In this document: one piece after another, positions 6,248-62,914 of the stretch
Layout of the letters: every line of letters begins with the position of its first letter
Numbering within the stretch: the first letter of the stretch is position 1
Source of the DNA: a virus
Direction: 5' to 3' (one strand)
DNA: 64,000 nt
IMG/VR virus record: IMGVR_UViG_3300046514_000338
Location: 1 to 64,000 of that record
The notes under the pieces: model-generated
Told to the model about the DNA's origin: nothing
What the model saw: only the letters and a program-made list of their open reading frames with translations
The model's database searches: none
Translations under genes and position numbers: made by a program

Positions 6248-6250
6248 TGT

Positions 6251-6627: not shown

Positions 6628-6632
6628 ACTCT

Positions 6633-8481: not shown

Positions 8482-8498
8482 AAACAAATAATATTACA

Positions 8499-8531: not shown

Positions 8532-8551
8532 TTTATTTTTTACCAAGCCGG

Positions 8552-25553: not shown

Positions 25554-26175
25554 CGAAATAGCTATTGAATGTGGTACCGATAAATCAAGTCGTGGTCATT
25601 CCTACTGCCAGTATTACGACATATTCTTTGACCAACTAAGGTACAAGTCAATTAATCTGCTAGAAATAGGCATTGATAAGGGCGATTCATTGCGAATGTG
25701 GCATAAATATTTTCCCCACTCTGAAATTCACGGCATCGACCTGCGTGGCGATTATGAGTACCTGCATGAACTAGGAATAAAAACACACATAGTTGACCAC
25801 AGCAATCGCGGCGAATTAATAGTGTTTGGTGAGCAATACGACCAGCATTTTGATATAATTATCGAAGACGGTAGCCACATGAGCGAAGATTCTGTACTTA
25901 CTTTCGAGACTCTTTTTCGCTATCTTAAACCGGGCGGTAATTATGTCATTGAAGATATGCTATGCGATTATGATAGTCGGTGGAACAGCGGGAGAAGTTC
26001 CATAGAGCGGGTAAAGAGAATGGTCAGCGAGGTAAACATGAGCGACGGTATAAGTCACGATAATCTATGCTCTAACAAAAAAGAAGCAGTAAAAAAATAT
26101 GGCGGAACTTATTTTGATTTGAAAATAGAGTCTATATTCGTGAGTTGCGGCCTTTGTATCATTAAAAAAATGTAA
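25534..26175 (+). CDS. SAM-dependent sugar O-methyltransferase-like (MycE-type)
   Basis: GTDK..HSY, LLEIGI..G.SLRMW, FDIIIEDGSH and LKPGG.YVIED. Confidence 0.8.
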   Translation: MIMRTLDEIAIECGTDKSSRGHSYCQYYDIFFDQLRYKSINLLEIGIDKGDSLRMWHKYFPHSEIHGIDLRGDYEYLHELGIKTHIVDHSNRGELIVFGEQYDQHFDIIIEDGSHMSEDSVLTFETLFRYLKPGGNYVIEDMLCDYDSRWNSGRSSIERVKRMVSEVNMSDGISHDNLCSNKKEAVKKYGGTYFDLKIESIFVSCGLCIIKKM

Positions 26176-26178
26176 ACC

Positions 26179-26709
26179 ATGAGTCTCTTTTGCCCGGTAG
26201 AAACATTACAGAACTCCAAAGAACTTGCTGAGATGGTTGACCTTTATCAAAAAGTAAAACCAAAAACGGTACTAGAGATAGGCAGTCTGTACGGCGGAAC
26301 GCTTTATCATTGGATGGATAAGGCAGATTGGCTGGTAAAGATTGTGTCAATAGATTTAGAAGTGAGAAATAAAGAGATGTGGTTTTCGTGGCTAAAGGAT
26401 GGGCAAAGCCTTGTTGCATTTCAGGGAAATTCATCAAACCCCGAAATGGTGGAATCGGTTTTAAAAACATTCCCGGATGGGGTTGATTGGTTATTTATCG
26501 ACGGCGGCCATGCGTATCACGAAGCAAGAGATGATTATTTTAATTATTTCCCGTTGGTGCGCCCCGGTGGTTATTGCCTTTTCCATGACATTATTGGCGA
26601 ACTAGGCGTAGTCGCATTGTGGAAGGAGATAAAAGCGGCAGGTGTCAATGTAACTGAAATTTCTCACGAACCACCCTATCTTGGGATAGGCATAATTCAA
26701 AAGGCATGA
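26179..26709 (+). CDS. Methyltransf_24-like O-methyltransferase
   Basis: VLEIGSLYGGT, LFIDGGHAY..A..D and VRPGG...HD. Confidence 0.8.
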   Translation: MSLFCPVETLQNSKELAEMVDLYQKVKPKTVLEIGSLYGGTLYHWMDKADWLVKIVSIDLEVRNKEMWFSWLKDGQSLVAFQGNSSNPEMVESVLKTFPDGVDWLFIDGGHAYHEARDDYFNYFPLVRPGGYCLFHDIIGELGVVALWKEIKAAGVNVTEISHEPPYLGIGIIQKA

Positions 26710-27437
26710 GCGATAAGATTACCTTGGTGACGGTGAACTGGAACCAACAACCATGTGTTGAGTTGTTGCTAAAATCGTTTGTTGAGCATCATCATTCGCT
26801 TCGCCCGATACGGCTTTGCTTGGTTGACAACGGCTCTACGGATGGGTCAAAAGAATGGCTTAAGGAAAACGGAATACCGTTTATTGACCTCAAAGAAAAT
26901 ATAGGCCATGAGAATGCGCTGAACCATGTGTATAACGACATAAAAACTAGGTACGTGATACTAAACGATACCGATGTTGAATATCATAACAACGTATATG
27001 ATTACATTTGGGAACTTGGCGACAAACGAATCAGCGTTGGAGAACTTATTGACCAAAATCAAATGAATGGCATTCACATTAAAGATAGAATTTCGCCTTG
27101 GTTTTGGATTTTTGACATATACGCCATGCGCAATCGCGGCGTAAAATATTTCCGTGACCCGGCAGTTGGTGATTGGACATACGATGTGGGGTCTTGGCAT
27201 TGGGATAAAATGAAGGAAAATGGTTTTGAAAATCTTCCAATCAATCGCAAACATTGGAACCAAGATTCTGAAATTGTGAGTATGCCGTATGAGCGGTTTG
27301 ACCACATAGGAAAAGTATCTTGGGATTTGGATAACCACGGTGACCGATATTCAGAAGTAATGCGCAGGAGATATTACATAAAAGACAGGCTGAAAGATTA
27401 TGAGCACATTGACCTAAAAGGAAAATTTATACCATGA
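26706..27437 (+). CDS. GT2-family glycosyltransferase
   Basis: VTVNWN, VDNGSTDGS, NIGH..ALN and LNDTD. Confidence 0.8.
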   Translation: MSDKITLVTVNWNQQPCVELLLKSFVEHHHSLRPIRLCLVDNGSTDGSKEWLKENGIPFIDLKENIGHENALNHVYNDIKTRYVILNDTDVEYHNNVYDYIWELGDKRISVGELIDQNQMNGIHIKDRISPWFWIFDIYAMRNRGVKYFRDPAVGDWTYDVGSWHWDKMKENGFENLPINRKHWNQDSEIVSMPYERFDHIGKVSWDLDNHGDRYSEVMRRRYYIKDRLKDYEHIDLKGKFIP

Positions 27438-28174
27438 CACTAGGCGGCATATTAATGATAAGGGAGGGCGTAAAGTACGATTATTGTTTTGAAGAGGCCA
27501 TCGTATGCCTAAAGGAATTATGTGACGAAGTGGTTGTGCTTGCAATAGATGGTGACGACAACACCGTTGAAATTTGTAAGACATACGAAGACCAACACAC
27601 TATGGTCGTCGTCTTAGATTCTTTAGAATGGTACCGGCAAAAAGGGAAAGAGCGACTTTCGTATTTTCAAAACATTGCTAAATCGTTTTTGACCACCGAT
27701 TATTATTTTTTATTGCAGAGCGATGAAATTGTCCATGAATATTCGTTTCCCGATATAAGGAAAGCTATAGAGACCGGGAAAGAGGCATTCCCGGTTCACA
27801 GGATAAATCTTTGGAGAGACTGCAATAGTTATTTAAGTGTAGGGCAGCACAGGCAACCATGCAATACAAGCCCAATAAGACTTGCTAAAATAAAATACGA
27901 TTCTGTTGGCGATGGGGAGAGTATAGGTGCCGAAGGAGAATGGGGCTTGCAATATTATATAAAAATGTATCACTATGGCTTCGTAAGGAAAAGAGAGGTG
28001 ATGAAAGCAAAGGTGACCAATATGCAAGAAACGGTATTTGGTATAGACCACGACCCAAAACTTGACCAAAGCGAAGAATTTGATTGGCGATTGTGGTTTA
28101 GCGAAGAAGACCTAAAGCCTATTAGTGGCACTCACCCGAAATTTATCAAAGATTGGATTATCACACGACCTTAA
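27434..28174 (+). CDS. GT2-like glycosyltransferase
   Basis: CDEVVV...DDNT, LQSDE and YHYGFVR. Confidence 0.75.
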   Translation: MTLGGILMIREGVKYDYCFEEAIVCLKELCDEVVVLAIDGDDNTVEICKTYEDQHTMVVVLDSLEWYRQKGKERLSYFQNIAKSFLTTDYYFLLQSDEIVHEYSFPDIRKAIETGKEAFPVHRINLWRDCNSYLSVGQHRQPCNTSPIRLAKIKYDSVGDGESIGAEGEWGLQYYIKMYHYGFVRKREVMKAKVTNMQETVFGIDHDPKLDQSEEFDWRLWFSEEDLKPISGTHPKFIKDWIITRP

Positions 28175-30651: not shown

Positions 30652-33159
30652 ATGGCCGCCCCAACCGCAACTCAGAGCCAGCAGGACAATCCGCCGGCAA
30701 AATTCAACGATGTACTCCTTCAACTGGATTTTGACGACCCGCGACAATTAACCAAAAAAGAAACGGGACAAAAAATTGCAGAGGCAATTTTTACTAATCA
30801 AACTAGCAACACGCATAGCCTTAATTTTTTTGTCGCAAGGGCAGCCCGCTTCCTGACATTAGAGCATTGGTCGAATGGTACGCAGGATATGACAGAGTTC
30901 TTAGACTTCTTCAATGTGTCTGATGGTAACAAAGCATATCTTAAAATAGATATGTCACCTGTGATGGTAGGACCACAATTCGTCGGGACACTTGTGGATT
31001 CTATGTGCAAAACAGAGGAATACCCTTGCGTGAAAGCCGTGGATGAAGATAGCTTGGCCGAAAAACAAAAACGAAAACATGATGCGCTTTTTAGAATGCA
31101 CGAAGTTGAAACAATAGATGCGGTGCAACAACAGTCGGGGATGCAACTAGAGCCTACCAACGCATATGTCCCAGATGACGAACTAGCAGCAGAAGTCTAT
31201 TTTTCTCTACAAGACCAACTACCAAAAGAAATAAACTTTGAAGAATATCTTACCCGCGCACTATTATATAATCAATACGACAGAGTGTTGAAGCCAAAGT
31301 TTATTCGCGACCTCATCGTAAATAACATCGAATGCAATAAGATAGAGCGTGATATTTACGGCAAAAGAACTATAAGGAGGGTTGTTCCCAAAAACCTTAT
31401 GTACAATTACTTCATAGGTGATACTGGCAGACTCGAACTTCGTTATATAGGTGATGTATATAACATGAAAATTTGCGACATAAGAATTAAGTACGGAAGG
31501 TCAGACAACAGGCCGGATGGACTTACCGAACTTGACCTATATAACCTTGCAAAATTTTCAACAGGGAATAACACCGGCATTGGATTTGCCTACCCGTGGC
31601 AACCTCAATATATGGTCTATGATAATCGTCGCCCTTGGGATGATAATAGTGTTTATATTTTCGACTTCGAGTACCGGGCAAATGAAACAGAGTATTATAC
31701 AAATCGCGTTGATAGATTTGGCAAAGAGAACATTACTCCAAAAAAAGGTAAGCCAGAGCCTACAGGAGATAAGACGAAAGTGTTATCAAAAGAAAAGGTG
31801 CGCTGGTATAACGGCATCTACGCTCCATATGCCAAGATAATTATATACTGGGGACTGCCTGACCTAGTAATTTTCCCATATACTGATGTATATATGGGAT
31901 TATCAAACTACACCATTAATATCCCGTTCAATAATGGCGAGTATGTGCCTGCTTTATTTGAAAGAGCAATGGAGCCATTAAAGGAGTATGCGCTCACGAA
32001 ACTTAAACGCAAGCAACTTATATCAAAACTTCGTCCATCCGGTATAAGGATTGACGTTGAAAGCGCCAGAAATATTGACCTTGGGAACGGTAATACTATA
32101 TCATGGGAAGAAATAGTTAGGATATATGACCAGACCGGGAACGAACTATGGAGCAGCCTAGGAATAAACCCAAATGAACGGCAAATGCCCGCTCTTACCG
32201 CAACGGCGGTTGATGACACTATTATGAAGGTTGTGCAACTCACAAATGTTTTGCAAGCAAACATAATGGATATACGCTCATTATTGGGTGTTCCACTTTA
32301 CCGTGATGGTAGTGATTTACCAGAGAGAACATCGGGGAAACAAGCAGAACTTCAAAACGCCTCTTCATTCAATGTGACTAGCTTCATTGAAAATGCCCAT
32401 AATCAGTTTATGAGCGAAACATTGTATAAATTATGTTTGCTCGAATGGCAGGAAATAGTAACCACTAAGCCCGATTCTGCGCAAGACCTAATCAATACAA
32501 AGTTTGACGTATCTGTGAAAATGAAAATGACAGAATATGAAAAACAGTTAATGCAGCAGCGCATTCAAACGGCGATGCAGACAATAGACCAAGATACCGG
32601 GAAGCCGCTCATTTCGTTTAAAGACGCTTTCATGGTTGAACAAATCGACAACTTCAAACTCGCTTACAATTTTTTAGCCAACACAATAGCAGACAATGAA
32701 CGAAAGGCAGAGATGGGCAGACAACAAAGGGAGCAAGCTAATGCAGATGCTCAACAGCAGACCGCTGCGCAATCGGCTGATGCTGAAAAGCAAATGCAGG
32801 CGGATAAAAATGAGGCAGAAAAAGATTTACTAGATTTTAAATCTACTAAGGATAAAGAATTAAAGGCTCTTGAAATTGCAGGGATGGTCGCCGCAAAAGG
32901 TCTTCCGTTACCCGATTTTATGCAGGCGATGATAAGTCAGTTAGTCCCGAACATAACTATCCCGCTAGCCCAAGAGAATAAGCAGATGGCGCAGGCGATT
33001 CAGGCGCAGGCAGCGGCAGAGCAGCAACAGGCTATACAGGAACAAGCAATGCAGCAACAAGGACAGCAGCCGGGGCAGCCGCAACAACAGGATATGCAGC
33101 CGCAACAAGGTAACCCGCAAATGCAAAATCAGCAACAGCCGCAAATGGCAATGGCGTAA
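30652..33159 (+). CDS. portal protein (crAss-like/podovirus type)
   Basis: 835 aa, largely helical, Q-rich tail; position next to the terminase. Confidence 0.8.
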   Translation: MAAPTATQSQQDNPPAKFNDVLLQLDFDDPRQLTKKETGQKIAEAIFTNQTSNTHSLNFFVARAARFLTLEHWSNGTQDMTEFLDFFNVSDGNKAYLKIDMSPVMVGPQFVGTLVDSMCKTEEYPCVKAVDEDSLAEKQKRKHDALFRMHEVETIDAVQQQSGMQLEPTNAYVPDDELAAEVYFSLQDQLPKEINFEEYLTRALLYNQYDRVLKPKFIRDLIVNNIECNKIERDIYGKRTIRRVVPKNLMYNYFIGDTGRLELRYIGDVYNMKICDIRIKYGRSDNRPDGLTELDLYNLAKFSTGNNTGIGFAYPWQPQYMVYDNRRPWDDNSVYIFDFEYRANETEYYTNRVDRFGKENITPKKGKPEPTGDKTKVLSKEKVRWYNGIYAPYAKIIIYWGLPDLVIFPYTDVYMGLSNYTINIPFNNGEYVPALFERAMEPLKEYALTKLKRKQLISKLRPSGIRIDVESARNIDLGNGNTISWEEIVRIYDQTGNELWSSLGINPNERQMPALTATAVDDTIMKVVQLTNVLQANIMDIRSLLGVPLYRDGSDLPERTSGKQAELQNASSFNVTSFIENAHNQFMSETLYKLCLLEWQEIVTTKPDSAQDLINTKFDVSVKMKMTEYEKQLMQQRIQTAMQTIDQDTGKPLISFKDAFMVEQIDNFKLAYNFLANTIADNERKAEMGRQQREQANADAQQQTAAQSADAEKQMQADKNEAEKDLLDFKSTKDKELKALEIAGMVAAKGLPLPDFMQAMISQLVPNITIPLAQENKQMAQAIQAQAAAEQQQAIQEQAMQQQGQQPGQPQQQDMQPQQGNPQMQNQQQPQMAMA

Positions 33160-33164
33160 ATAAA

Positions 33165-33308
33165 ATGTATAGGGGAATGTCCAATGAATACTTTGAAGGT
33201 TGTGGTGAGATATTTTTTGTCATCGAATATTTGCGGTGTAAAAATGTTTGTGTAATATTTATTGACCATGAAGCATACGGGGAAGTGTTCCCAATCATCC
33301 TAAACTAA
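33165..33308 (+). CDS. small hypothetical protein (47 aa)
   Basis: Manual ORF filling the gap after the portal gene. Confidence 0.35.
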   Translation: MYRGMSNEYFEGCGEIFFVIEYLRCKNVCVIFIDHEAYGEVFPIILN

Positions 33309-33316
33309 AAATAATC

Positions 33317-33517
33317 ATGAAAGTAAGACTTAAAAAAACCGCTCCCGGTCAGAAAACTATAACCTTCAACAAAGGCGGCTTGCATGAATCAACCGGAACG
33401 CCACAGGGTCAGCCTATTCCTGCCGCGAAAAAAGAAGAAGCACTCGAAGGAGAACTTGGTAAGAAAGCCAAAATGCAAGCATTGTTCGCCCGTAATGTCC
33501 TTACCGGAAAGAAATAA
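33317..33517 (+). CDS. small basic phage protein
   Basis: KGGLHESTGTPQGQPIPAAK motif; coupled to the terminase start. Confidence 0.65.
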   Translation: MKVRLKKTAPGQKTITFNKGGLHESTGTPQGQPIPAAKKEEALEGELGKKAKMQALFARNVLTGKK

Positions 33518-35607
33518 TGGCCTGCCAAGAGATACAGGGGATTAATGTTTTCTGGCGAGACCTGCGCGATGGCGAAAGCATTTTGTATGAAAACCTTTCC
33601 CGCGAGGAACAATTTTTCCGCCGCGTGGAATCGCCATTTACAGAAGACGAACTAGATGACCTAGTTGAAATATCCTATGATGAACGCTCCAAGCATTACA
33701 CTCCAAAACAAAAAGATTGGGTAGATAGAGAAGAAAAGCGCATGACCTACGGCGAAGGTGTGTATGCGTATATTAACGGCATCCTGACATACATTCCCGC
33801 ATCATATTGGGGATATATAAATCATTGGACACTTGAACATGGCGAAAAGCCTGACTACCGTGAGGCCGACAGAAGATTTTTTGTATTCATGGAGTATATA
33901 TGCTTCGAGACAGAGGTGCTAGGTATAACAAGAGGGAAAGGTAGAAGACAGGGTGCCACATCGCTAGGTTACTATTGGCAGTGGTGGATATGCGGGAGAG
34001 AGAAAGATAAAATTGGCGGCTCAATTTCCTATAACGATGAAATCGCCCAAAAGAATTTTAAGGGAATGTTTATGCGCGGCTTCAGGGAGATGCTTACTTG
34101 TTTTTTGAGGGACTTCGATAGCGCCGGAGAAAATTTCGTCAGCTTCAGAAAAAAGTCACCAACAGGAACAAAGAAAGGAGTGATGCGGAAAAGACAGGGG
34201 CTTAATAGCTTCGTTGATTATCTTTCAAACTCAGTGAATAGCTATGATGGCGGGAGAGTATCGTTTTTACTTCCCGACGAAACAGGTAAGTATGCTAAGA
34301 TGAACATTAATACCTATTGGTCAAAAGTGTCCCCAACACTTAAGATAGGTAGAAAAAAAGTAGGGTTTGCTTACATGCCAACCACGGTTAATCCAAAAAA
34401 ATTAGGTGGAGAAAATTTCAGGCAATTTTGGAATGATGCCAACCAATTCGCGGTTAACCCAAATACAAAAGAACCTTACGGCCTGAATACGCCGCATAAG
34501 GTCATTCGATATTTTGTCCCCGCTACTGAGGGGTATGTTGGGTGTATAGATAAGTTTGGCGCTTCTGTGATAGAAGACCCAGTGGAACCAATCATGGGCA
34601 ATGACGGAGAGTGGATTACCGAAGGGTCTCGCTCGGTAATATTAAGGGACAGGGCACCGAAAAAAGACGATCAGTTGATGGAGCATAGACGAGATTTCCC
34701 GCTTACAGAGTTAGAGATGTTTGCCTTTGAGATGGGAGTGTGCGAGTTTGATTATGACAGGTTGTATGAGCAACTAACAACACTTGAATCAGAGCCTCCA
34801 TATTTAAGACGGGTAAGATTAATTGAGCACAACGAGGTTACAAAGGCCGTTATCCCTAACGGGAAGGATAGAAAAAAAAGATGGGTGTCATTCATGGACG
34901 ACGATGCGGGTAATTGGCTTATTTTAGAAGCACCGTCAACCCCAAATAAATTCGACTATTTTGGTGATGTTATTTCCCCAAGGAATACGCATGAGTACGC
35001 TGCGGGTGTAGATACATTCAGAATTGGATTTGCCGAAGATGGCTCCAAAGGAACGATTTGTATTTTCAAAAAATCACGAAAGGTAAATGGCGTTGAAGAG
35101 GGGAATTACCCAGTAGCATTATATGTTGGTCGCCCTCGGCTGATACAATTTTTATACGACGAAGTGATAAAAGTTTGCATGTGGTACGGCTGCAAAGTAA
35201 ATTTTGAGATAAGCGCAGGTGACTTTTTCTACGGCTACTTTTACGAAAAACATTGCAGCAATCTTTTGTACTGGACTCCCGCTCTTGACCCAAACAAACC
35301 TCACCCAAAGTTAAAACCCGGAACAGAAAGCGCATCTCCTTTTGAACTAGCGGCTCAACTTGAAGCAGCTAAGATATTTTTTGATGGTAACGACCCGGTA
35401 AGCTACAATGGACATTGCCACAGAGTTAAATTTCCAACGTTAATCAGGCAGGCTATGGAGTATGACCATTCGGCTAGAACACCCTATGATGAAATGATTT
35501 CTTTAATGATGGCGCTGTTGCCCGTACTGAAGCCAAGGTCATTTGATAAACCTCAAACAAAACCAATAAAACTGCTACCAACGTATAAGATAAAAAAGTA
35601 TGCGTAA
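33517..35607 (+). CDS. terminase large subunit
   Basis: KGRRQGAT Walker A-like, LPDETGK Walker B, AGVD nuclease motif, C-terminal YDEMIS. Confidence 0.88.
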   Translation: MACQEIQGINVFWRDLRDGESILYENLSREEQFFRRVESPFTEDELDDLVEISYDERSKHYTPKQKDWVDREEKRMTYGEGVYAYINGILTYIPASYWGYINHWTLEHGEKPDYREADRRFFVFMEYICFETEVLGITRGKGRRQGATSLGYYWQWWICGREKDKIGGSISYNDEIAQKNFKGMFMRGFREMLTCFLRDFDSAGENFVSFRKKSPTGTKKGVMRKRQGLNSFVDYLSNSVNSYDGGRVSFLLPDETGKYAKMNINTYWSKVSPTLKIGRKKVGFAYMPTTVNPKKLGGENFRQFWNDANQFAVNPNTKEPYGLNTPHKVIRYFVPATEGYVGCIDKFGASVIEDPVEPIMGNDGEWITEGSRSVILRDRAPKKDDQLMEHRRDFPLTELEMFAFEMGVCEFDYDRLYEQLTTLESEPPYLRRVRLIEHNEVTKAVIPNGKDRKKRWVSFMDDDAGNWLILEAPSTPNKFDYFGDVISPRNTHEYAAGVDTFRIGFAEDGSKGTICIFKKSRKVNGVEEGNYPVALYVGRPRLIQFLYDEVIKVCMWYGCKVNFEISAGDFFYGYFYEKHCSNLLYWTPALDPNKPHPKLKPGTESASPFELAAQLEAAKIFFDGNDPVSYNGHCHRVKFPTLIRQAMEYDHSARTPYDEMISLMMALLPVLKPRSFDKPQTKPIKLLPTYKIKKYA

Positions 35608-35613
35608 AAAAAT

Positions 35614-35646
35614 TTTGAAGATTTCTAATAAAAAGATATAATTTTA
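35614..35646 (+). promoter_or_regulatory. promoter for the scaffold/capsid genes
   Basis: TTTG-N21-TAATTTTA. Confidence 0.5.
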
Positions 35647-35665
35647 CGAAAACGTCAATATCATT

Positions 35666-36862
35666 ATGGCCGAAACCGCTGAAGTTGTTCAGGAACCAAC
35701 GCAAGAACAATTAGTCGCAAAGCAGGAATTTGAGAATCACATGGCGATGGCTTTTAACGAGCCACTAAAAACACCGCCTACTGCAACGGCAACCGCTGCC
35801 GATACTTCAGTTACGCAAACACCCGCTGCCGGCTCAGCAGCAGTAACTCCCGGCGATGATACAGAAGTTTTAGACTATGAGGCCGCTCTTAAAAATGATT
35901 TTGGTTGGGAATCTACAGAGCAAGCACTAGCTGAAATAACAGAACTACGCGCATTAAAAGAAAAACCACAAACACCTGAAATTGCTTGGGCTGATGACCA
36001 AAGCAAACAGATACACGAACTCATCCGTCAGGGCAAAAGAAAAGAGGTTCGTGAGTTCCTAGAAACACAGGAACGACTCGAAGCGTTTACCACAGGTGAC
36101 GTTACAAAAGATAATGCTCCCGAAATTATTAAACTAGGTATGAAACTTGGGAACAAGTTGCTTACTGATGACGAAATACACTTTCAATATAAGCAGGACT
36201 ACGGAGTGCCGAAAGAACCTGTGCAGAAAGCGATAGAGGAAGATGATGATTTTGCAGAGCGTCACCAAGAGTGGAAGGACAGGGTTGCCGCTATTGAGAT
36301 GAAGAAAATTGTGGCCGCTAAAATGGCCGTTCCGCAATTACAATCACTTAAATCAAAAATTGAACTACCAGAAATTATATCGCCGAAAGATGACCGACAA
36401 AAGGAATTTGAAGCCATTGAAGCAAGTAATGCACAGGCTTTGGAAGCCTATAACAAAGTTATCGCACCGGCCATTAATTCTCTTAAGGAATCTGACCTTA
36501 AGTTCACTGTAAAAGTTGATGACCCCAATAATAAGATGCAATTTGAAGTTTCGGTTGCACCTGAATCGGACGACTTCAACTTAGTGAAACAAGAATCCCT
36601 TGACACATTCGGGTGGCTGAATAAAATCGCATTCGATGAAAAGGGGAATTTTTTACCGCAACGACTCAACCGCGCAATCCTTCTCGAAAAGAACTTTGAC
36701 AAGTTTGCCCAAAGTATCGCCCGACAAGCGGTTAATGCTGAAAGAGCAAGATTAGTTGCAGCCAATTCAAATCAAAAAGGAAACGGGATGCGTGATTTTA
36801 ACGTAACCCCGCAAGAAAAGAGTGAATTGGCATCGCAGATGGAAAGAGCAATGTCTGTGTAG
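35666..36862 (+). CDS. scaffolding-like protein
   Basis: Acidic and helical; directly upstream of the capsid gene. Confidence 0.6.
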   Translation: MAETAEVVQEPTQEQLVAKQEFENHMAMAFNEPLKTPPTATATAADTSVTQTPAAGSAAVTPGDDTEVLDYEAALKNDFGWESTEQALAEITELRALKEKPQTPEIAWADDQSKQIHELIRQGKRKEVREFLETQERLEAFTTGDVTKDNAPEIIKLGMKLGNKLLTDDEIHFQYKQDYGVPKEPVQKAIEEDDDFAERHQEWKDRVAAIEMKKIVAAKMAVPQLQSLKSKIELPEIISPKDDRQKEFEAIEASNAQALEAYNKVIAPAINSLKESDLKFTVKVDDPNNKMQFEVSVAPESDDFNLVKQESLDTFGWLNKIAFDEKGNFLPQRLNRAILLEKNFDKFAQSIARQAVNAERARLVAANSNQKGNGMRDFNVTPQEKSELASQMERAMSV

Positions 36863-36907
36863 GGCAATAAGTGGTATTAATTAATTTATTTAAACATTTA
36901 ATCCATC

Positions 36908-38317
36908 ATGGCAACACCCGGAATATATAGGGGTGCTACGGGCGCACCCGGTACTGTTGCATACCCAAGTGGTATTACAACTGGTATTTTCAACGAATTA
37001 AATTTCGTCATCCCCGATTATATACCTCAACTTATCGCAAAGTATGGCAATGATTCATACATGCTGGTAAGTGAGATTTTAGGTCGTAGTACGGTGGAAG
37101 AAGCCTCTACTACTACAAATACCTATTCGCACTTTGAGCGTGGCCGTCTTTTCGGAGTCGGCATCAACCTCAATAGCGTTGGAGGTTTGACTTCAGGTAG
37201 CGCAGCATCAATCACATTTAAGTCGCCCGACTCTTATGTGGATGCAGCCGGAACGCAATCGGCTTTCCTCAACAACCAAACGGTTAAACTCCGGTCAAAT
37301 GGTAAAAAGGCAACAATCTCCGCTATCTCCCGCGCTTCTGCCGGAGCATTTACGGCTACATTAACACCCACGGGTGCGTATGTACTTAACTCCGGTTCTT
37401 CTGGTACCGTTCTGCTTGCTGGTGAAGGTTTGGAAACTTTCGGTAACCAACTTGCGGGTGAATCTTCCGATTCACAAGGTACGCAGCAACCAAAGTTGTA
37501 TCGTTACGACAATACAGCAACCGTACTTCGCGCCTCTGTAAAGTCATCTGACCTTACAGGGATGAATAAGACCCAAATCGACTTTGGTGACGGCAACAAC
37601 TATGAACCATATCTTGCTGTAAAGGCGATGAACATGCAGATGATGGTTTCAATCGAAGATGCCGTTTTAGAAGGCGTACCTTATGCCAATACTGCGAATA
37701 TCGGCACAGTTGGTATCATCCCCGATGTTACAGCAAGAGGAACAGAAGTTGACTACAACCAATACAACTTCACGGTAGGTGATTTCCAAAACATGACTCG
37801 TGTGTGGGACTACAATGGCGGTCCAAAAGAATATCACGGTGTTCAGGAAATTCAGCAACGCCAAGACATTAACCGCACCTTGTTTGGTCTTTATCCAAAT
37901 GGTGCCATCAGTTACGGAAGTGTTGGGTACAACCAAGAGGCATCTGTCTCTTACGGGTTCCAATCCTTCGCAACCGATACATACGCCATCCATTTTCACC
38001 GCTACAAAGGGTTCTCTGCACCTTCAGTTTTTGGTTATCAACCAACGGTAGGTGACTACCGCGCATTCTTCGGGCTTTTTGCTCCACAGGGCATGGTGGC
38101 CGATGCGAAATTGAATGCTAGCCGTCCCTACATGCAGTGGGTGTATCAGCGTAACCCGGATATTCCTGCCGGAATGAAAATTTACAGTTGGGAACTTGGT
38201 TATACCAAGGCAACAAAGACAACGGAAGCATCCAACAAGTATGAGCAGATAGCATACGTTGGTAGCCGTACAGTCGCAGCCGAGCAGTTTACAATACTTA
38301 AAGGGTTGGCGGCCTAA
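36908..38317 (+). CDS. major capsid protein
   Basis: 469 aa with biased high-expression codon use, GNQLAGESS and GIIPDVTARG segments, followed by a terminator. Confidence 0.82.
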   Translation: MATPGIYRGATGAPGTVAYPSGITTGIFNELNFVIPDYIPQLIAKYGNDSYMLVSEILGRSTVEEASTTTNTYSHFERGRLFGVGINLNSVGGLTSGSAASITFKSPDSYVDAAGTQSAFLNNQTVKLRSNGKKATISAISRASAGAFTATLTPTGAYVLNSGSSGTVLLAGEGLETFGNQLAGESSDSQGTQQPKLYRYDNTATVLRASVKSSDLTGMNKTQIDFGDGNNYEPYLAVKAMNMQMMVSIEDAVLEGVPYANTANIGTVGIIPDVTARGTEVDYNQYNFTVGDFQNMTRVWDYNGGPKEYHGVQEIQQRQDINRTLFGLYPNGAISYGSVGYNQEASVSYGFQSFATDTYAIHFHRYKGFSAPSVFGYQPTVGDYRAFFGLFAPQGMVADAKLNASRPYMQWVYQRNPDIPAGMKIYSWELGYTKATKTTEASNKYEQIAYVGSRTVAAEQFTILKGLAA

Positions 38318-53390: not shown

Positions 53391-55352
53391 GTGGCATATC
53401 GGGACTCATCGTTTACATCGGCGAATGCACTTTCGCTAAACGCCACTAAACCTACTCTTACACAAGTAGGCGATATTCTTTATACATATTTTTTTACAGA
53501 TGGTGGATTAAATTCTGGTATCACTCTAACGCCACCTACAGGATGGACACTTGTTCCCGGCAGCAATCAAGGTGCTAATACAGGTGCGCCCGATGGATGG
53601 TCTTCGTGGGTGTACTGGAAAATGGCTGGTCCAAGCGAACCGGCGACCTACACATGGACGATTGGCGGCATCCCTGCCACAGATATTTCCGCTTACATAG
53701 TAGCCTTATCGGGAAGAAAAGCATCCCCTCCGGTCATTTCTCACGGCACAGTAAACACAACAGGTAATGCCACACCTGTAACGGTTTCTGATAGTGGCAT
53801 AACACCACTTAATAGAGATGATGTTTTAGTCTTTGCTATAGGAGATATTACGGTAGGCACAGATGCGTGGTCATTCGGGACACTTACAAATTATACTAGA
53901 CGGCAGAATACACAAAATGGCTTTAATGTAGGTGTTTGTTATACGCGAGACGATGTTGCTGCCGCCGCTACCGGGACAATATCGGTAACGCTAACCCGAA
54001 ATTCTGGAACGGGAACGTCAGGATGGGGAATGTTTGTATTATCTGTTCCCGCCGCTACAGTCGCGCCAACATCAAACCCAACACGACGTCTATTTCGGGG
54101 AGGTAATGTAAAACTTGTTCGGCTAGGAAGAATGCCACTTGCCCCGCTTCCCGATACTACAAATATTTCATGGATTGTTCCCGCTGAACCATTACCACGA
54201 ACCAAGTCGTTACCAACGGCATTATTAACAGACTCATCGTTTTTTGTTCAGGTATTAAGCCAAGAAGTTATAACGGTAGATAAGTGGGTACAACCAATTT
54301 CCCAACCATATTTAAAGACAGCGTATAGGCAAACGGGTGGCGAAGCAAGATTTGAAGTTCCACGAACTATACTTGTTACCGATTGGTTTCAGCTAGCAAG
54401 TGAGCCTGTAAGAAGAAAGCCTACGCAATTATTGGGAGGAGAATTTAGATTTGAATTACCTAGAGCGATATTAGTTACCGATTGGTTCCAAGAAGCTAGC
54501 CAACCATATTTTTCAAAAAGAAGAGACACTAATTTCGGGGAGTACAGGTTTGAAGTACCACGGGCTATTTTACTTAGCGATTGGTTTCAGCCAACGTCAG
54601 TTCCTTATTTTTCAAAGCTAAGAAACTCAAATTTCGGTGAATATAGATTTGAACTTCCAAGAACCATTTTAGTTACTGATTGGTTCCAGCCACTATCTGC
54701 ACCATATTTTACTAAAAGAAGGGATGCCAATACTGGAGAATACAGGTTTGAGTTGCCTAGAGAGATATTGCTATCGGATTGGTTCAATGAAACGAGCCAG
54801 CCGGTACAAAAACTAATAAGGCAGCTACTCGGCGGCGAGGTGAGGATTGATGTGCTTACCCCTGCCGAAATAATCACCCTTGATAAGTGGTACAATGACA
54901 CTAGCCAGCCCTATTTTAATCGAAAAACAAATAGTAACTTTGGTGAGTACCGTTTTGAAGTACCGAGGGAGATATTACTTTCAGATTGGTTTCATGATAC
55001 AAGCCAGCCTGTAAAAGATAAAGTGCGGCAGTTGTTGGGCGGTGCGGTAAGTATCGAAATAATAATTCCTCCCGAAGTAATCACGCTTGATAAATGGTAT
55101 CAGGAAACGCAACAGCCGTACTTTACTAGGTTAACGCAGACAGACCAATATGAGTTCAGGGTTGATGTGGTTGAAACGCCGCCACCGACAGGGACAGTAC
55201 CATACCAATTTGTAGAAATAATTAACGAACCGGAGGGCGGTAGTCACAACGAAAGAAGAAGGCAGGAAGAGCAACAAAATATCAATGAAATATTAAAAGA
55301 CGATGAAGCTATTAGGTTTATATTAAAAAAATGGTTAAACCACTTTAATTAA
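53391..55352 (+). CDS. beta-domain protein with about nine 33-36 aa tandem repeats
   Basis: N-terminal TPPTGWT..YWKMAG.SEP.TYTW domain followed by EYRFE.PR.IL..DWF...S.P repeats. Confidence 0.8.
   Translation: MAYRDSSFTSANALSLNATKPTLTQVGDILYTYFFTDGGLNSGITLTPPTGWTLVPGSNQGANTGAPDGWSSWVYWKMAGPSEPATYTWTIGGIPATDISAYIVALSGRKASPPVISHGTVNTTGNATPVTVSDSGITPLNRDDVLVFAIGDITVGTDAWSFGTLTNYTRRQNTQNGFNVGVCYTRDDVAAAATGTISVTLTRNSGTGTSGWGMFVLSVPAATVAPTSNPTRRLFRGGNVKLVRLGRMPLAPLPDTTNISWIVPAEPLPRTKSLPTALLTDSSFFVQVLSQEVITVDKWVQPISQPYLKTAYRQTGGEARFEVPRTILVTDWFQLASEPVRRKPTQLLGGEFRFELPRAILVTDWFQEASQPYFSKRRDTNFGEYRFEVPRAILLSDWFQPTSVPYFSKLRNSNFGEYRFELPRTILVTDWFQPLSAPYFTKRRDANTGEYRFELPREILLSDWFNETSQPVQKLIRQLLGGEVRIDVLTPAEIITLDKWYNDTSQPYFNRKTNSNFGEYRFEVPREILLSDWFHDTSQPVKDKVRQLLGGAVSIEIIIPPEVITLDKWYQETQQPYFTRLTQTDQYEFRVDVVETPPPTGTVPYQFVEIINEPEGGSHNERRRQEEQQNINEILKDDEAIRFILKKWLNHFN
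54260..55175 (+). repeat. degenerate ~99-bp coding tandem repeat
   Basis: Recurrent GATTGGTT/GATAAGTGG cores spaced 99-108 bp apart. Confidence 0.85.
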
Positions 55353-59568: not shown

Positions 59569-60090
59569 ATGCCTCTAGTCCCTAATTTTTCTACTAGCCA
59601 AAGTCTAGCCACGCTTTCAAATGTAACATTTACCGACACTAGCACAGGGTCAGATGGCACTATCACCACACGACGAATTACAGTTGTCCTTCCAAACGGG
59701 AATTATCTTACCGCTGCCGGGGAATCGACTACACCAGCTTATATCAATTGGCCGTATGCGCAACCATCTATTACGGTATCACTTCTTTCAAAATCTAAGG
59801 CTGCAACAGTAGTAGTAGAGTGGTTTGCTGGTGCTGTTTCTACATATGTAAAAGTTCTTATTTCACTTTGGGATTTGTATGATTATGTCTACGGCATTGG
59901 CCTTATTTCTGACATGACTAGTGACCCAGACATTATTTCAGACAAGGATTGGTATTCAAATTTCTTCAAATTCGTGACGAATATATGGATAGCAGAATCG
60001 GCGATAACTTATGGTAGTGATACATATAGTTCGCAGCGGGCGCTAAATGTGAATCAAAGTATGATGACGCATAGCAATCAGGTATTCTAA
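59569..60090 (+). CDS. virion protein, tail hub/fibre-attachment-like
   Basis: FTDTSTG Ig-like start; position before the fibre gene. Confidence 0.55.
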   Translation: MPLVPNFSTSQSLATLSNVTFTDTSTGSDGTITTRRITVVLPNGNYLTAAGESTTPAYINWPYAQPSITVSLLSKSKAATVVVEWFAGAVSTYVKVLISLWDLYDYVYGIGLISDMTSDPDIISDKDWYSNFFKFVTNIWIAESAITYGSDTYSSQRALNVNQSMMTHSNQVF

Positions 60091-60614
60091 TGCCAACAAC
60101 AGCAGAAATATTATCATTTGCGCCGGGAGCAGCTTACCTTGCTGCAAATAATGTAGGCAAGTCAAATCTCTATAATAACGGTGCAACACTCAACCCAAAT
60201 CTACCACAACAGATATATGCGCTCTACTTTGTTCTGAATAAAATATATACACTTGACCCTAACTATTCGGGTCTTTATGCAAATGTTCAATACTTGTGGG
60301 AAATAATGGGAAGATATGGCCTAGCCTCACAGGGATTATCAGGAAGTGGCGGGTCTGCCGGTGGTATCACGCCTACGGGTCTATTCCCTATATTTATTAC
60401 GAGTTCAAACTTCACTACTGCAACGGCGTACAATAACCCAAACATAGTTGGTCAGAACATAGCAATATTTGTAAATGAATATTCTCAGCAGTGGATGGTT
60501 GCGGGCGCAACTACATTTACCATGACCTCAACCGGAATAAACATAACACTACCGGGTTTTGATGCCACTGCATTTCAGTACACTATATTAATTGATAAAC
60601 TCGGAAGCGGATGA
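60090..60614 (+). CDS. virion protein
   Basis: Helical N-terminus, Gly linker and beta C-terminal domain. Confidence 0.55.
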   Translation: MPTTAEILSFAPGAAYLAANNVGKSNLYNNGATLNPNLPQQIYALYFVLNKIYTLDPNYSGLYANVQYLWEIMGRYGLASQGLSGSGGSAGGITPTGLFPIFITSSNFTTATAYNNPNIVGQNIAIFVNEYSQQWMVAGATTFTMTSTGINITLPGFDATAFQYTILIDKLGSG

Positions 60615-62914
60615 AAAAATTAATCGCTATAATATTTATCCTGTTCTCATTTTCTGCAATAGCGCAGCAAGTAGTACCGCGTTCAAACGGGTCTATAACT
60701 ATTCAGGACTACAGAAGTTACCCAAAATATAATTTATTTGTTCCAACATATGACGATACTATTGCTGCCAATACTGGCACAAATCCTGGGTTGAATTTAG
60801 TTGGAGCAATAATATTCACAACAACAGACCAAAACTTTTGGGGTCGCAAAGCACTTTCTGGAACAACTGGGCTATATTGGTCTTCTCTTGGCGGCGGGGC
60901 AGCAAACGCAAGAAACGCATTAAATGTAAACAATGGATTTGTAGAAATAGGCGGCGCGGCAACAAAGCTAGATTCTATATTTATAGGCTCACAGGACTTT
61001 CCTCCAAGCTATCCATTTAGCATAGCAGAGCATCCTAATAATGCCAATGCCCTTACTGTTGATTTTTCCCAAACAGGCGCAGGTGGCGTAACAGCAGGAG
61101 CGGTAACATTAACTAATAAAGATTTTTCAGGCGTTGGATTTGGATTCATTGGGTTAGACCCCGGATTTGTCCGTGACCAAGTTGAAAATACTACTACACC
61201 TACGGACCCCGGTGGCTGTTGTGGTGGTTATAGAAGCACCGCAGTTGGGTTCGCGGCAAAACTAACTTACGCAAATATGGTTTCGCAATGGTTCATGGGA
61301 GTTGAAAACAATGGCTTTGCTGATTCAGCATTAATGATACGATGTACCGGGAGAAACATTCAGTTTGCAGTAGATAATAACGGTTCGTTTTGGTTCAAGG
61401 GTTCAGCATCGAATATGACTAGCGTCTATGGCGGCTTCATGGGTGTCAGCAATGGCACAGGAAGATTTGGTGTAGGCACAACAACGCCGGGACAAAAATT
61501 GACGGTAATAGGCTCTGGTAGCTTTACTGATTCACTTTCAATTTGGACACCCGTCTCTGTATCTGGGAATGATTCCGTCTTAGTTAAAAGCGGAAACTTA
61601 GTGAAAGCAATTGTACAATCTTCTATAACCGGAGTAAATATTTATAGTGCAGATGGAACATTGTCAGCAAACAGAACGTTAACCGGAGCGGCTAATTCTC
61701 TCATCTTCTCTGGGCTAGGAGGATTTAAATTTGACCAGCAACCAGTAGTACAGGTAAATTCCACAAATGTTAGCGGGACTACAATTAACTCATCTCTTGA
61801 TTTGTCTAATTCCAATCTAACGACAGGAACGGGATTTTATAATGTTGGTAATGCCCTTACAACAGGTGTATTGGAACAAATTTCAACTACATCAACTACG
61901 CTTGCAGCAGGGAATAGATTGCTAGAATTAAGTATGTCAGGAGCAAACGGGACTAATGCTATTACAGCAAACGCATTACTAGTATCTGTTATAAATACTA
62001 ATGCTACATCTGGAACTAACACCGCCGCTATATTCAAAGCATCAGGCGCAACAACGGCTAACTGGGCAGTATTTACAGGTTCAGTAACAGGAGGCGATGG
62101 GCGGATAAATGTGAATAATGCCACCAATGTAGCCAACCAAGTAATAGTAATAAAATCATTGACCAACACAGCAGGGGATGGTATAGTAATTAAATCAAAC
62201 AATGAAACCTCCAATATGCAAATAGGCTATCAAACTATTGCAACAAATGGAGGAATGATTTTAAATAGTTCTGCAACTGGCGTTCAGGTTCAATCAAGAT
62301 TATATGTAGGAGCATCTGGAACATCGCCAACTGCGCTTATTCATATTTTAGGGGGAACTACATCGGCCAATTCCGCCCCAATAAAACTAACGTCAGGAAC
62401 TTCAATGAGTACCGCAGAGGCAGGGTCATTTGAATATACAACACCTCAGTTATTTTTTACCAATGGTGGCGCACAACGTCAAGAATTATTTCAGGGACAA
62501 CAATCAAGAGTATCTACTCAATTTGATAAGGCCAATGCCACTCTTGCGGATATTACGGGACTAACAGCTACATTGGTAGCTGGTAAAACATATAGGTTTG
62601 AAACCGTTCTATACACTACATCAAATGTAGCTTCAGGTGTTAAATTTGCGATAGCCGGTACAGCAACAGCAACGAATATAATTTATGAAGCAGTGGTTAT
62701 AGACGCAAATGTTAATGCTGCGCAAACAAGAGCAACCGGATTAGCCACAACGGTAGGTGCAGTAACAGCAGTTACCAATGCCCTATGTAAAATAACAGGC
62801 ACAATAACTGTAAATGCAGCCGGAACATTAACGGTTCAATTTGCGGATAATGCAGGAGTAAATACTAGCAGCGTACTTGTGGGCAGTACGTTTGTGGTAA
62901 CAGAAATGTTATAA
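60611..62914 (+). CDS. tail-fibre/adhesin-like protein with a Sec signal peptide
   Basis: MKKLIAIIFILFSFSAIA-QQ; GRFGVGTTTPGQKLTV and IYSADGTLSANRT fibre-type motifs; T/S/N/G-rich. Confidence 0.7.
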   Translation: MKKLIAIIFILFSFSAIAQQVVPRSNGSITIQDYRSYPKYNLFVPTYDDTIAANTGTNPGLNLVGAIIFTTTDQNFWGRKALSGTTGLYWSSLGGGAANARNALNVNNGFVEIGGAATKLDSIFIGSQDFPPSYPFSIAEHPNNANALTVDFSQTGAGGVTAGAVTLTNKDFSGVGFGFIGLDPGFVRDQVENTTTPTDPGGCCGGYRSTAVGFAAKLTYANMVSQWFMGVENNGFADSALMIRCTGRNIQFAVDNNGSFWFKGSASNMTSVYGGFMGVSNGTGRFGVGTTTPGQKLTVIGSGSFTDSLSIWTPVSVSGNDSVLVKSGNLVKAIVQSSITGVNIYSADGTLSANRTLTGAANSLIFSGLGGFKFDQQPVVQVNSTNVSGTTINSSLDLSNSNLTTGTGFYNVGNALTTGVLEQISTTSTTLAAGNRLLELSMSGANGTNAITANALLVSVINTNATSGTNTAAIFKASGATTANWAVFTGSVTGGDGRINVNNATNVANQVIVIKSLTNTAGDGIVIKSNNETSNMQIGYQTIATNGGMILNSSATGVQVQSRLYVGASGTSPTALIHILGGTTSANSAPIKLTSGTSMSTAEAGSFEYTTPQLFFTNGGAQRQELFQGQQSRVSTQFDKANATLADITGLTATLVAGKTYRFETVLYTTSNVASGVKFAIAGTATATNIIYEAVVIDANVNAAQTRATGLATTVGAVTAVTNALCKITGTITVNAAGTLTVQFADNAGVNTSSVLVGSTFVVTEML

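Follow-up and report, generated by a model that had tools for sequence, protein, structure and literature searches.

The window analysed here is a stretch of 64,000 nucleotides from the IMG/VR viral record IMGVR_UViG_3300046514_000338. On its forward strand, an open reading frame of 767 amino acids (60611..62914) encodes a protein designated P0001. Among the large genes of the late operon that of P0001 comes last, and it lies close to the lysis cassette. The start ATG overlaps the stop codon of the preceding open reading frame (ATGA), and the two genes are translationally coupled. Only four open codons lie 5' of this ATG and the next methionine downstream is residue 224. A true start downstream of the signal peptide, which the first-pass annotation had named as evidence against its reading, was discarded since no candidate precedes Met224 and a start at that position would remove a conserved N-terminal domain.

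The features of the locus are collected in Table 1. Two small genes lacking signals precede the P0001 gene, and the order small gene 1, small gene 2, fibre is kept in eight loci. Homologues of small gene 1, with 29–34% identity, are found 5' of a signal-bearing fibre in the related loci L002 and L004–L009, and the C-terminal module of small gene 2 is always directly 5' of the signal-bearing fibre. In loci that reach far enough, further signal-bearing proteins and lysis-type genes follow 3' of the fibre. In the window, the gene that follows P0001 encodes a product with neither a signal nor a D[ST] dipeptide, and lysis-type membrane genes lie 3' of it, past the window end. This product and that of 53391-55352, which also lacks a signal, are other candidate receptor-binding proteins of the window. 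The closest matches of the large terminase protein (TerL) were all from Flavobacteriia phages, which together with the Q-rule signal described below points to a Bacteroidota host.

Table 1. Coordinates of the features at the P0001 locus.
Feature	Coordinates	Strand	Remarks
Conserved small upstream gene 1, 173 aa	59569..60090	+	no signal
Conserved small upstream gene 2, 174 aa	60090..60614	+	no signal; translationally coupled to fibre gene
Signal peptide, residues 1-18	60611..60664	+	n-region MKK, h-region LIAIIFILFSF (11 residues), c-region SAIA
Conserved domain at the mature N-terminus, residues 19-110	60665..60940	+	phmmer, AF2
Sequon 1, D49-T50-I51	60755..60763	+	motif Y-x-D-T-x-A-A-N
Variable Gly/Ser/Thr/Asn-rich shaft, residues 111-589	60941..62377	+	
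Sequon 2, D121-S122-I123	60971..60979	+	
Sequon 3, D238-S239-A240	61322..61330	+	
Sequon 4, D307-S308-L309	61529..61537	+	
Sequon 5, D321-S322-V323	61571..61579	+	
C-terminal tip, residues 590-767 plus stop	62378..62914	+	TNF/C1q-like beta-sandwich, AF2 pLDDT 70-88
PKD and polysaccharide-lyase-like protein, 338 aa	62932..63948	+	PF22352 (1e-24), PF14099 (7e-13)

The amino terminus of P0001 agrees with the architecture described in the first-pass annotation, namely a basic start, a hydrophobic core, an AxA site and a glutamine at the +1 position. The n-region is basic, the h-region falls within the ~10–15 residues expected of Sec/signal peptidase I (SPase I) substrates, and the residues at -3 and -1 are small. 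The predicted SPase I cut is A18|Q19, giving a mature N-terminus of QQ that obeys the Bacteroidota Q-rule. When the open reading frames of at least 60 amino acids in the window were all screened crudely for hydropathy and charge, P0001 was the sole large protein with a classic signal. There is no lipobox cysteine in residues 1–30, so the signal is not of the SPase II type, and a lipoprotein was rejected as there is no cysteine near the cleavage site. For the same reason, and given that its 767 amino acids are not small, a superinfection-exclusion lipoprotein resembling Llp or Cor was also discarded.

Conservation of the leader among homologs, a check that had been proposed at the outset, bears out the signal. 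A total of 139 relatives were aligned, all of them metagenomic or viral. Glutamine occupies the +1 position in 135 of these, the average for the phylum being about 71% (PMC10653852), and the -1 residue is S, G, A, C or T in 138 of 139, with small residues at both -1 and -3 near the leader cut. All 25 relatives found by word search begin with MK(K) followed by a hydrophobic core, a small residue and Q. When phmmer was run with the mature N-domain stretch alone, 120 matches (cluster representatives) were obtained, nearly all of which start at residues 19–28 after a leader of ~19 residues; genuine signal-less members were not seen in the family. Judged by this conservation, the signal peptide of P0001 is real and under selection, and the sequences strongly support Sec export followed by an SPase I cut that would expose Gln19.

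Members of the family were found only in viral and metagenomic sequences. Two scans by pattern across 185,579 species genomes identified no relative. In eight IMG/VR viral records, relatives occupy the same position within the late operon. A scan of viral contigs with the single P0001 protein gave no match, nor did cultured phages produce a DNA or protein match for the region, P0001 or P0005. P0001 has no Pfam, PHROG or NCBIfam match and thus is a member of no named family; some relatives have PF13884, PF26696 or PF13472 (SGNH hydrolase). Within the N-domain, Cys64 and Cys81 covary as expected of a disulfide (63 relatives with both, 69 with neither and 7 mixed; Fisher 1e-30, a value inflated by the non-independence of the family sequences), and such a disulfide would be present in about half of the relatives.

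Beyond the signal, P0001 may be considered in terms of a conserved N-terminal domain, a variable shaft and a C-terminal tip, and the family as a whole follows this pattern of a conserved N-end with a modular and variable distal part. AlphaFold2 models the N-domain as an arm that extends from Gln19, followed by a short helix and a small beta-sheet (pLDDT 72, core 80–92), with Q19, R24, T30, D33, P45, D49 and A53 being invariant. A fold search of the N-domain against BFVD gave a best E of 6e-3. A PDB-wide VIA search returned tailspike N-terminal or neck pieces and collagen trimerisation units with a best Z of 3.7, too weak to name a fold; the domain is a candidate attachment or trimerisation module. 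The shaft contains blocks common to relatives (SGANGTNAITA and NTNATSGTN) and its monomer model is unreliable with a pLDDT below 50, the full-length monomer having a pLDDT of 52. Among BFVD models, matches to P0001 were collagen-repeat and tail-fibre proteins of uncultured Caudovirales, with E down to 6e-14.

A sequence profile search identified no relative of P0001 in the PDB. From Foldseek, PDB matches to the tip model (E 1e-4 to 7e-3) included the C-domain of Chlamydia Pgp3, the lectins PLTL and BC2L-C-Nt, the CBD of the cyanophage A-1(L) short tail fibre (8ke9), the fibre tips of Bdellovibrio (8okw, 8okh) and a C1q head; without the C1q head, the E values are 1e-4 to 3e-3. These TNF/C1q-like tips form trimeric knobs that bind sugars or surfaces at the ends of fibres, several being secreted proteins, and they share the fold of residues 590–767; with 9–16% identity and a monomer model of moderate confidence, the shared fold does not fix the ligand. 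At the sequence level, the tip shares 53% identity with the tip of P0026, a signal-less collagen-like fibre (locus L003), and is presumed to be the receptor-binding end. The tail-fibre-like character first proposed for this protein is supported by the P0026 identity, the TNF/C1q-like fold and the BFVD matches. P0001 is probably a modular tail-fibre-type protein, likely trimeric, of a podophage with a Bacteroidota host.

As the first-pass annotation had reported, P0001 contains exactly five D[ST] dipeptides, each followed by A, I, L or V and all within its N-terminal half (residues 49–321, the first 42% of the protein), the tip being free of them. Sequon 1 is retained as D-T-(T/A/V/L/I) in about 126–130 of the 139 relatives, or more than 90% of the family. 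Five sequons compare with 2.45 expected, which is not significant by shuffling (P=0.09), and the chance that all five D[ST] dipeptides precede A, I, L, V, M or T is 0.02. Some cytoplasmic proteins of this phage have the same sequon density as P0001, 0.65 per 100 amino acids. On its own, the sequon count of P0001 is only suggestive. The enrichment test that had been called for gave a suggestive but non-significant result for P0001 alone, and a clear excess at the level of the family.

Counting D-(S/T)-(AILVMT) outside the conserved N-domain, that is beyond residue 100, 119 family proteins contain 790 sequons where 434 are expected (O/E 1.82, bootstrap CI 1.62–2.04). The third position is one of AILVMT in 71% of the D[ST]x tripeptides of the family versus 35–48% for every other X[ST]x, and this Asp-specific bias is kept after sequence contexts are de-duplicated (0.64–0.69 versus 0.37–0.46). 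Signal-less open reading frames of the same loci have no excess (75 versus 102 expected), nor do signal-less fibre and structural proteins (19–21 versus about 24 expected). An excess is also seen in other proteins of these phages that bear signals, in one case with 23 sequons versus 3.6. Along the family proteins, the number of sequons per aspartate is 0.36 at the N-end and declines to 0.04 at the tip. The signal peptide and the family-wide sequon bias are each far beyond chance, and the Asp-specific excess is supported as the footprint of exposure to a periplasmic O-glycosylation system. An Asp-specific structural motif of the shaft retains a small probability as the source of the bias.

According to a review of Bacteroidota O-glycosylation, substrates of the system, like P0001, have a Sec signal and D-(S/T)-(L/I/V/T/A/M) in soluble regions. 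This motif is enriched in non-cytoplasmic proteins, where almost all of its occurrences are occupied, and the system also accepts sequons that are engineered or foreign; unlike P0001, all known substrates are cellular and phages are mentioned 0 times (PMC12871550). From the family excess and the published behaviour of the glycosylation system, P0001 is probably O-glycosylated.

A possible precedent is provided by Cellulophaga phage phi18:3 (NC_021794; Pachyviridae, Baltivirus), a Flavobacteriia podophage of roughly 72 kb with a TerL distantly related to that of the window. Its gp085-087, together with gp084, gp086 and gp087 of phi13:2, begin as P0001 does with MK, a hydrophobic core and (S/A)|Q. 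These proteins are large and late, and are encoded just 5' of the lysis cassette, a position equivalent to that of P0001. The database annotation of gp085-087 is virion structural or tail protein 'based on experimental MS/MS proteomics analysis'. Virion MS/MS can also detect sticky proteins of the lysate. By hhalign, the Cellulophaga proteins share no homology with P0001 beyond the leader, and two of them are pectate-lyase-like spikes. Unlike the P0001 family, they are sequon-depleted with one each versus 3–4.6 expected; signal-bearing yet sequon-poor, they indicate that export and glycosylation need not coincide. No paper remarking on the signals of the phi18:3 and phi13:2 proteins was found in the literature. 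From gene position, architecture and, by analogy, the phi18:3 annotation, P0001 may be a component of the virion.

We know of no tailed phage that routes a fibre through Sec export, and searches of the literature brought up no account of a tailed-phage fibre with a signal peptide. The tail fibres of the related Flavobacterium Elemovirus, unlike P0001, lack a signal. The receptor-binding g3p of filamentous phage and its g8p carry Sec signals and meet the particle outside the cytoplasm, as is proposed for P0001, although inoviruses are extruded through the envelope, unlike a tailed phage (PMC8310372). Like P0001, proteins of Porphyromonas gingivalis prophages bear SPase I signals with Gln at +1, and a role in modifying the envelope of the host has been suggested for them (Matrishin et al. 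2023, PMC10367356; cited in PMC10653852). These differ from P0001 in being small, function-unassigned products of temperate siphophages that are neither fibre-like nor part of a late structural operon, and the study reported no sequon analysis (PMC10367356).

The reading that accommodates most of these observations, to which we give about an even chance of being correct, is that the fibre is exported by Sec, processed to expose Gln19, O-glycosylated by the host and joined to particles after the inner membrane is breached. P0001 would be made late, coupled to the two conserved small genes, and exported by Sec. Signal peptidase I would cut past Ala18 and a host glutaminyl cyclase would convert Gln19 to pyroglutamate. 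In the periplasm, the shaft would be O-glycosylated at D-(S/T)-(hydrophobic) by the general system of the host, leaving the sequon-poor tip, and the N-domain disulfide would form in about half of the relatives. Since there is no signal for outer-membrane export, the mature fibre would be kept in the periplasm. Its N-terminal arm and domain could then dock on cytoplasm-built particles, either when the inner membrane has been breached by holin or within the lysate, a putative timing suggested by gene position, architecture and the analogous phi18:3 proteins. Of the proposal as first made, the export and glycosylation steps are sustained by signal conservation and by family-wide sequon enrichment as a footprint of exposure, with the count in P0001 adding little.

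Its suggestion of display on the infected cell is not favored as neither a T9SS C-terminal domain (CTD) nor a lipobox was found. The CTD had no Pfam match in P0001 at E up to 0.1 and no NCBIfam match at E up to 0.01 in P0001, two relatives and five other signal-bearing proteins. T9SS cargo was discarded, there being no type A or B CTD and the C-terminus being a TNF-like knob. The small gene 2 protein is a candidate adaptor or assembly partner of the fibre. A weak, sub-threshold Atlas lead connects it to the T7 tail-fibre N-terminal domain (score 0.82). For its residues 55–174 paired with the mature N-domain, a complex prediction returned no answer at a score of 0.01, which counts neither way as to binding. 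Atlas structure look-alikes of the small gene 1 product are fn3-like with TM <0.5, a lead only.

More broadly, and somewhat tentatively, this podophage lineage may finish its host recognition apparatus outside the cytoplasm, with fibres and depolymerase-like spikes being exported, modified and mounted when holin opens the membrane. Sec export, pyroglutamylation, disulfides and host O-glycosylation would all contribute, with extra sequons selected on the shaft and not the tip. To our knowledge, the assembly of tailed-phage virions is taken to be wholly cytoplasmic, and they are regarded as beyond the reach of the periplasmic modification systems of the host. The lineage reading, if true, would add an extracytoplasmic last step to tailed-phage assembly and provide the first instance in which phage virions are decorated by a general glycosylation system of the host. 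Passage of fibres through the periplasm would tie the final assembly step to holin action. The virion surface would bear host-type, species-specific O-glycans and pyroglutamate caps, affecting its resistance to proteases, its adsorption and the way in which grazers or immune systems recognise it. Besides the receptor, the Sec, SPase, glutaminyl cyclase and glycosylation machinery of the host would help to set the host range, and a signal peptide would no longer exclude a structural role when Bacteroidota phages are annotated. The idea can be tested directly in cultured systems, either with Cellulophaga phage phi18:3 or phi13:2 or by expression in Flavobacterium johnsoniae.

A less probable reading, though one with some claim to consideration, is that P0001 is exported and probably glycosylated but is no part of the virion, being a periplasmic or released accessory protein assembled from fibre modules. 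Acting from the periplasm, it might mask or modify the receptor or nascent surface polysaccharide, providing superinfection exclusion or keeping progeny from sticking to debris, or serve as a free adhesin or enzyme after lysis. The signal, sequon and disulfide evidence fits equally, as do the SGNH hydrolase domain of some relatives, the resemblance of signal-bearing neighbours to beta-helix or glycosidase enzymes, the proposed role of the P. gingivalis prophage proteins (PMC10367356) and the presence in the window of other, signal-less receptor-binding candidates. Against this, the gene stands at the end of a late structural operon, in translational coupling with conserved genes that lack signals, and the strictly conserved N-module with a highly variable distal part is a hallmark of attached fibres. 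Moreover, the tip is common to the classical fibre P0026, there is no outer-membrane route, T9SS CTD or lipobox, and the analogous phi18:3 proteins are annotated as virion components.

It is improbable that P0001 is a conventional tail fibre of cytoplasmic assembly, its hydrophobic N-terminus being left unused for export late in infection and either kept or turned to use as a membrane tether or assembly handle, and its sequons being incidental. Tailed-phage particles are assembled in the cytoplasm, the sequon count of the single protein is compatible with chance, and the Cellulophaga signal-bearing virion proteins are sequon-poor. This reading does not account for why Gln is near-invariant at +1, next to small -1 and -3 residues, why only signal-bearing proteins have an Asp-specific excess of sequons, or why the two cysteines covary; all of these observations require cleavage of the protein and its exposure to the periplasm if they are to make sense. 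A passenger (moron) bacterial surface or periplasmic gene, or contig contamination, foreign to the biology of the phage would agree with the host-type signal and the lack of a PHROG or Pfam phage family match, and is highly improbable given the two empty scans of species genomes, the relatives at the same late-operon place in viral records, and a GC content and strand skew at P0001 that are continuous with its neighbours.

A functional link of the fibre to the GT/MTase operon of the window, also raised in the first-pass annotation, was not supported. GT17 is missing from five related records with signal-bearing fibres, two of which are complete and gave only sub-threshold GT2-like matches. A requirement of the fibre for the operon was rejected because the operon is not common to related phages with signal-bearing fibres. 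Mycobacteriophages glycosylate their virion proteins in the cytoplasm by means of phage-encoded glycosyltransferases, with no need for an export signal. The two cases would have in common sugars on virion proteins and GT genes in the phage, with the periplasmic machinery of the host being the putative agent for P0001.

The window covers the first 64 kb of an IMG/VR viral record that is 74.9 kb long (linear; CheckV 64%). Among its products are GroEL, a portal, TerL, virion proteins, and some very large proteins that are putatively ejected. Among cultured phages, the relatives of its TerL (approximately 25% identity) are exclusively phages of Flavobacterium, Cellulophaga, Tenacibaculum, and Maribacter, from which a Bacteroidota host is a reasonable inference. 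The gene for the fibre-like protein P0001 begins with an ATG that overlaps the stop codon of the ORF before it (ATGA), and a PKD/polysaccharide-lyase-like gene lies 3' of it. Further along the record is what is probably a holin, spanin, and endolysin cassette, parts of which are kept in the related locus L002. A separate 653-aa protein, with a family assignment limited to a weak PHROG match at its N-terminal end, contains approximately nine tandem copies of a unit of about 37 residues (G-E-Y-R-F-E-V/L-P-R-x-I-L-L/V-S/T-D-W-F ...).

Coordinates of the fibre gene, its neighbours, and the features compared with it
Feature	Sequence	Coordinates	Strand	Remarks
Fibre ORF (P0001)	window	60611-62914	+	767 aa; last large gene of late rightward operon
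Small signal-less gene 1	window	59569-60090		upstream of fibre
Small signal-less gene 2	window	60090-60614		directly upstream of fibre
Adjacent Cys-Cys, P0001 shaft	window	61214-61219		residues 202-203; Gly-rich G-G-C-C-G-G-Y
Probable lysis cassette	full record (G000)	63941-67312		run of small membrane proteins; lipoprotein-like ORF (leader ending LTIAC) overlapping TM-anchored ORF; 166-aa ORF; mostly past window end
Further signal-bearing proteins	L004	11087-13858, 14071-15441		between fibre and lysis genes
Further signal-bearing protein	L007	15528-18725		between fibre and lysis genes
Further signal-bearing protein	L008	12399-13352		between fibre and lysis genes
Further signal-bearing protein	L009	12702-14072		between fibre and lysis genes
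Further signal-bearing protein	L002	11782-12354		between fibre and lysis genes
gp085, gp086, gp087	phi18:3 (L012)	2892-8584		consecutive
Proteins with Q-rule signals	phi13:2 (L011)	31864-37843
GT/MTase operon	window	21961-27437		Pfam: DUF5672 and GT9-like, two GT17, one GT2, three methyltransferases
First and last operon ORFs	window	21164-21961, 27434-28171		no Pfam match
134-aa protein	window	20346-20750		start of rightward operon
653-aa repeat protein	window	53391-55352

When all window ORFs of at least 60 aa were screened in a simple way for hydropathy and charge, P0001 alone among the large proteins showed a classic signal. The sole other strong N-terminal hydrophobic segment among plausible genes is the single transmembrane segment of a 134-aa protein. 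Both the N-terminus of P0001 and its five D-S/T-(I/I/A/L/V) tripeptides agree fully with the first-pass annotation; a true start downstream of the signal, which it had named as a possible objection, does not occur before Met224, and upstream just four codons are open. A word-based search identified 24 relatives that share an N-terminal end and often a C-terminal end around variable middles, and all 24 begin with MK(K), followed by a hydrophobic core, one small residue, and then Gln. Bias from the leader was avoided by searching the mature N-domain alone (residues 19–110) against 1.84 billion cluster representatives. Nearly all of the 120 hits match from residue 19–28 onward, right behind such a leader, and in the remaining few the start seems to be truncated or mis-called. 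Gln occupies +1 in 135 of 139 aligned N-termini (about 71% across the phylum; PMC10653852), and the −1 residue is S, G, A, C, or T in 138. Since conservation sets in with residue 1 of the mature protein (Q19, R24, T30, D33, R35), the sequences suggest that the exposed N-terminus has a function of its own. In 185,579 prokaryote species genomes, two pattern scans yielded no confirmed family member, and the family is absent from the cultured phages searched; eight loci on viral contigs carry it. The signal is thus kept across a large phage-only family, and export and cleavage of P0001 are very likely.

The proposed enrichment of O-glycosylation sequons is weak for P0001 alone (five vs. 2.45 expected, shuffle P = 0.09) and strong at the family level. 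The chance of all five D[ST] pairs preceding one of AILVMT is 0.02, and sequons are just as dense in some of this phage's cytoplasmic proteins. Across 119 family proteins of at least 400 aa, with the first 100 residues excluded so that the conserved N-domain was not counted, 790 D-(S/T)-(AILVMT) sequons were found vs. 434 expected from composition (O/E 1.82, CI 1.62–2.04, bootstrap over proteins), the homologues not being independent; O/E exceeds 1 in 88 of them. The third residue is one of AILVMT in 71% of D[ST]x vs. 35–48% for each of the 19 other first residues; with 47% after N[ST] and 35% after E[ST], the bias is Asp-specific. When similar 11-residue contexts are collapsed, Asp stands at 64–69% vs. 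37–46% for controls. Controls, all drawn from the same genomes and loci, were unbiased, both for signal-less ORFs of at least 200 aa (75 sequons vs. 102 expected, 37%) and for signal-less fibre-like and structural proteins (about 20 vs. about 24). Unrelated signal-bearing proteins in the same loci were strongly enriched (23 vs. 3.6, 6 vs. 1.2, 5 vs. 1.4). The number of sequons per Asp declines steadily along the proteins, from 0.36 in the N-terminal tenth to 0.04 in the C-terminal tenth, and the confinement of all P0001 sites to the N-terminal half, noted at first pass, follows this trend, in which the shaft is rich in sequons and the tip poor. More than 90% of members keep the first of the five sequons (D49-T50-x, within Y-x-D-T-x-A-A-N) as D-T-(T/A/V/L/I).

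According to a 2025 review (PMC12871550), Bacteroidota O-glycosylation is periplasmic and acts on non-cytoplasmic proteins; the motif is enriched in Bacteroidota, sequons are nearly fully occupied, and engineered or foreign sequons are used. Taken together with the family results, these points argue that the family proteins are exposed to the periplasm and that selection favours their glycosylation. A structural cause specific to the shaft is a minor, though not negligible, candidate for the Asp-Ser/Thr-hydrophobic excess. Given export, host O-glycosylation of P0001 is likely.

In the N-domain, positions 64 and 81 (numbered as in P0001) covary as a cysteine pair: both are Cys in 63 cases, neither in 69, and seven are mixed (Fisher 1e-30), mostly as one-column misalignments or adjacent CC pairs. 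The pair probably represents a second footprint of an oxidising compartment. P0001 itself belongs to the Cys-less half of the family. Some relatives have an N-domain CC pair where others have the separated pair, and an adjacent Cys-Cys occurs in the P0001 shaft.

The C-terminal 180 residues of P0001 were modeled as a beta-sandwich with moderate confidence. A Foldseek search matched this tip to knobs of the TNF/C1q-like type, namely Pgp3, the C1q head, the lectins PLTL and BC2L-C-Nt, the CBD of the cyanophage A-1(L) short tail fibre, and Bdellovibrio fibre tips. Matches in BFVD were to collagen-repeat and tail-fibre proteins. The N-domain model (pLDDT = 72) consists of a short helix and a small sheet, with fold matches too weak to use. 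P0001 matches no curated family and therefore belongs to no named one; its relatives carry fibre or spike accessories, including an endosialidase chaperone domain, a PTL trimerisation region, an SGNH esterase, and YadA-head repeats. On another viral contig, a 469-aa protein ends in a P0001-type tip (53% identity); since it has no signal and an N-terminal G-Y-T collagen-like repeat, it is a classical fibre.

In 8/8 related loci, homologues (approximately 30% identity) of two small signal-less genes directly precede the signal-bearing fibre gene. The second encodes a modular, two-part protein (alignment A4). In the related loci L004, L005, L007, and L009, its N-part is encoded by a gene of its own, joined to another C-part, and this gene precedes one for a signal-less fibre-like protein (418–474 aa); a gene with the C-part only adjoins the signal-bearing fibre, directly upstream. 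This suggests that the variants are fibre-specific adaptor cassettes, and the protein would fit the role of an adaptor or assembly partner.

Several loci contain further large signal-bearing proteins downstream of the fibre, followed by lysis genes. Some resemble beta-helix or glycosidase enzymes, one matches a PHROG 'tail protein', and most of those counted are strongly sequon-enriched. Neither a T9SS C-terminal domain nor a lipobox was found in P0001 or the signal-bearing proteins checked; therefore, by known routes, they would stay periplasmic until lysis. That P0001 is an exported accessory protein outside the virion is the main rival explanation, and an unlikely one. The best reading, which we hold to be somewhat probable, is that P0001 is present in virions and attached after holin action. 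The full chain, in which P0001 would be exported, cleaved, O-glycosylated by the host, and then attached to the virion, has about an even chance of being correct. Such a tail fibre with an extracytoplasmic maturation route is testable in existing cultured phages.

In the cultured Cellulophaga podophage phi18:3 (Baltivirus), the genes for gp085, gp086, and gp087 immediately precede the lysis cassette, and their products are annotated in the database as virion structural, structural, and tail proteins 'based on experimental MS/MS proteomics analysis'. All three have signals that follow the Q-rule (Gln at +1), with leaders ending in GYS, VSA, and LNA ahead of QV, QT, and QT, and the same Q-rule signals are found in Cellulophaga phage phi13:2. 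The phi18:3 proteins and P0001 are non-homologous yet alike in bearing such signals near lysis genes. In contrast to the uncultured fibre family, gp085–gp087 are sequon-depleted (one each vs. 2.9–4.6 expected). Signals are lacking on the fibres of a related virus, the Flavobacterium Elemovirus; therefore, the trait is lineage-specific. A literature search returned no report on the signals of these Cellulophaga virion proteins, and the only published note found on phage proteins with Q-rule signals deals with small P. gingivalis prophage proteins of unknown function (PMC10367356, cited in PMC10653852).

The functional link to the GT/MTase operon proposed at first pass was not upheld. Five related records, including two complete ones, have signal-bearing fibres and lack GT17, so fibre export and sequons do not depend on the operon. 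The two complete records gave GT2-like matches below threshold only, and the operon is not conserved in these phages. One Pfam match within the operon is to a rhamnosyl O-methyltransferase family. Methylation is common among O-glycans (PMC12871550), so it is conceivable that the operon enzymes remodel a lipid-linked O-glycan.
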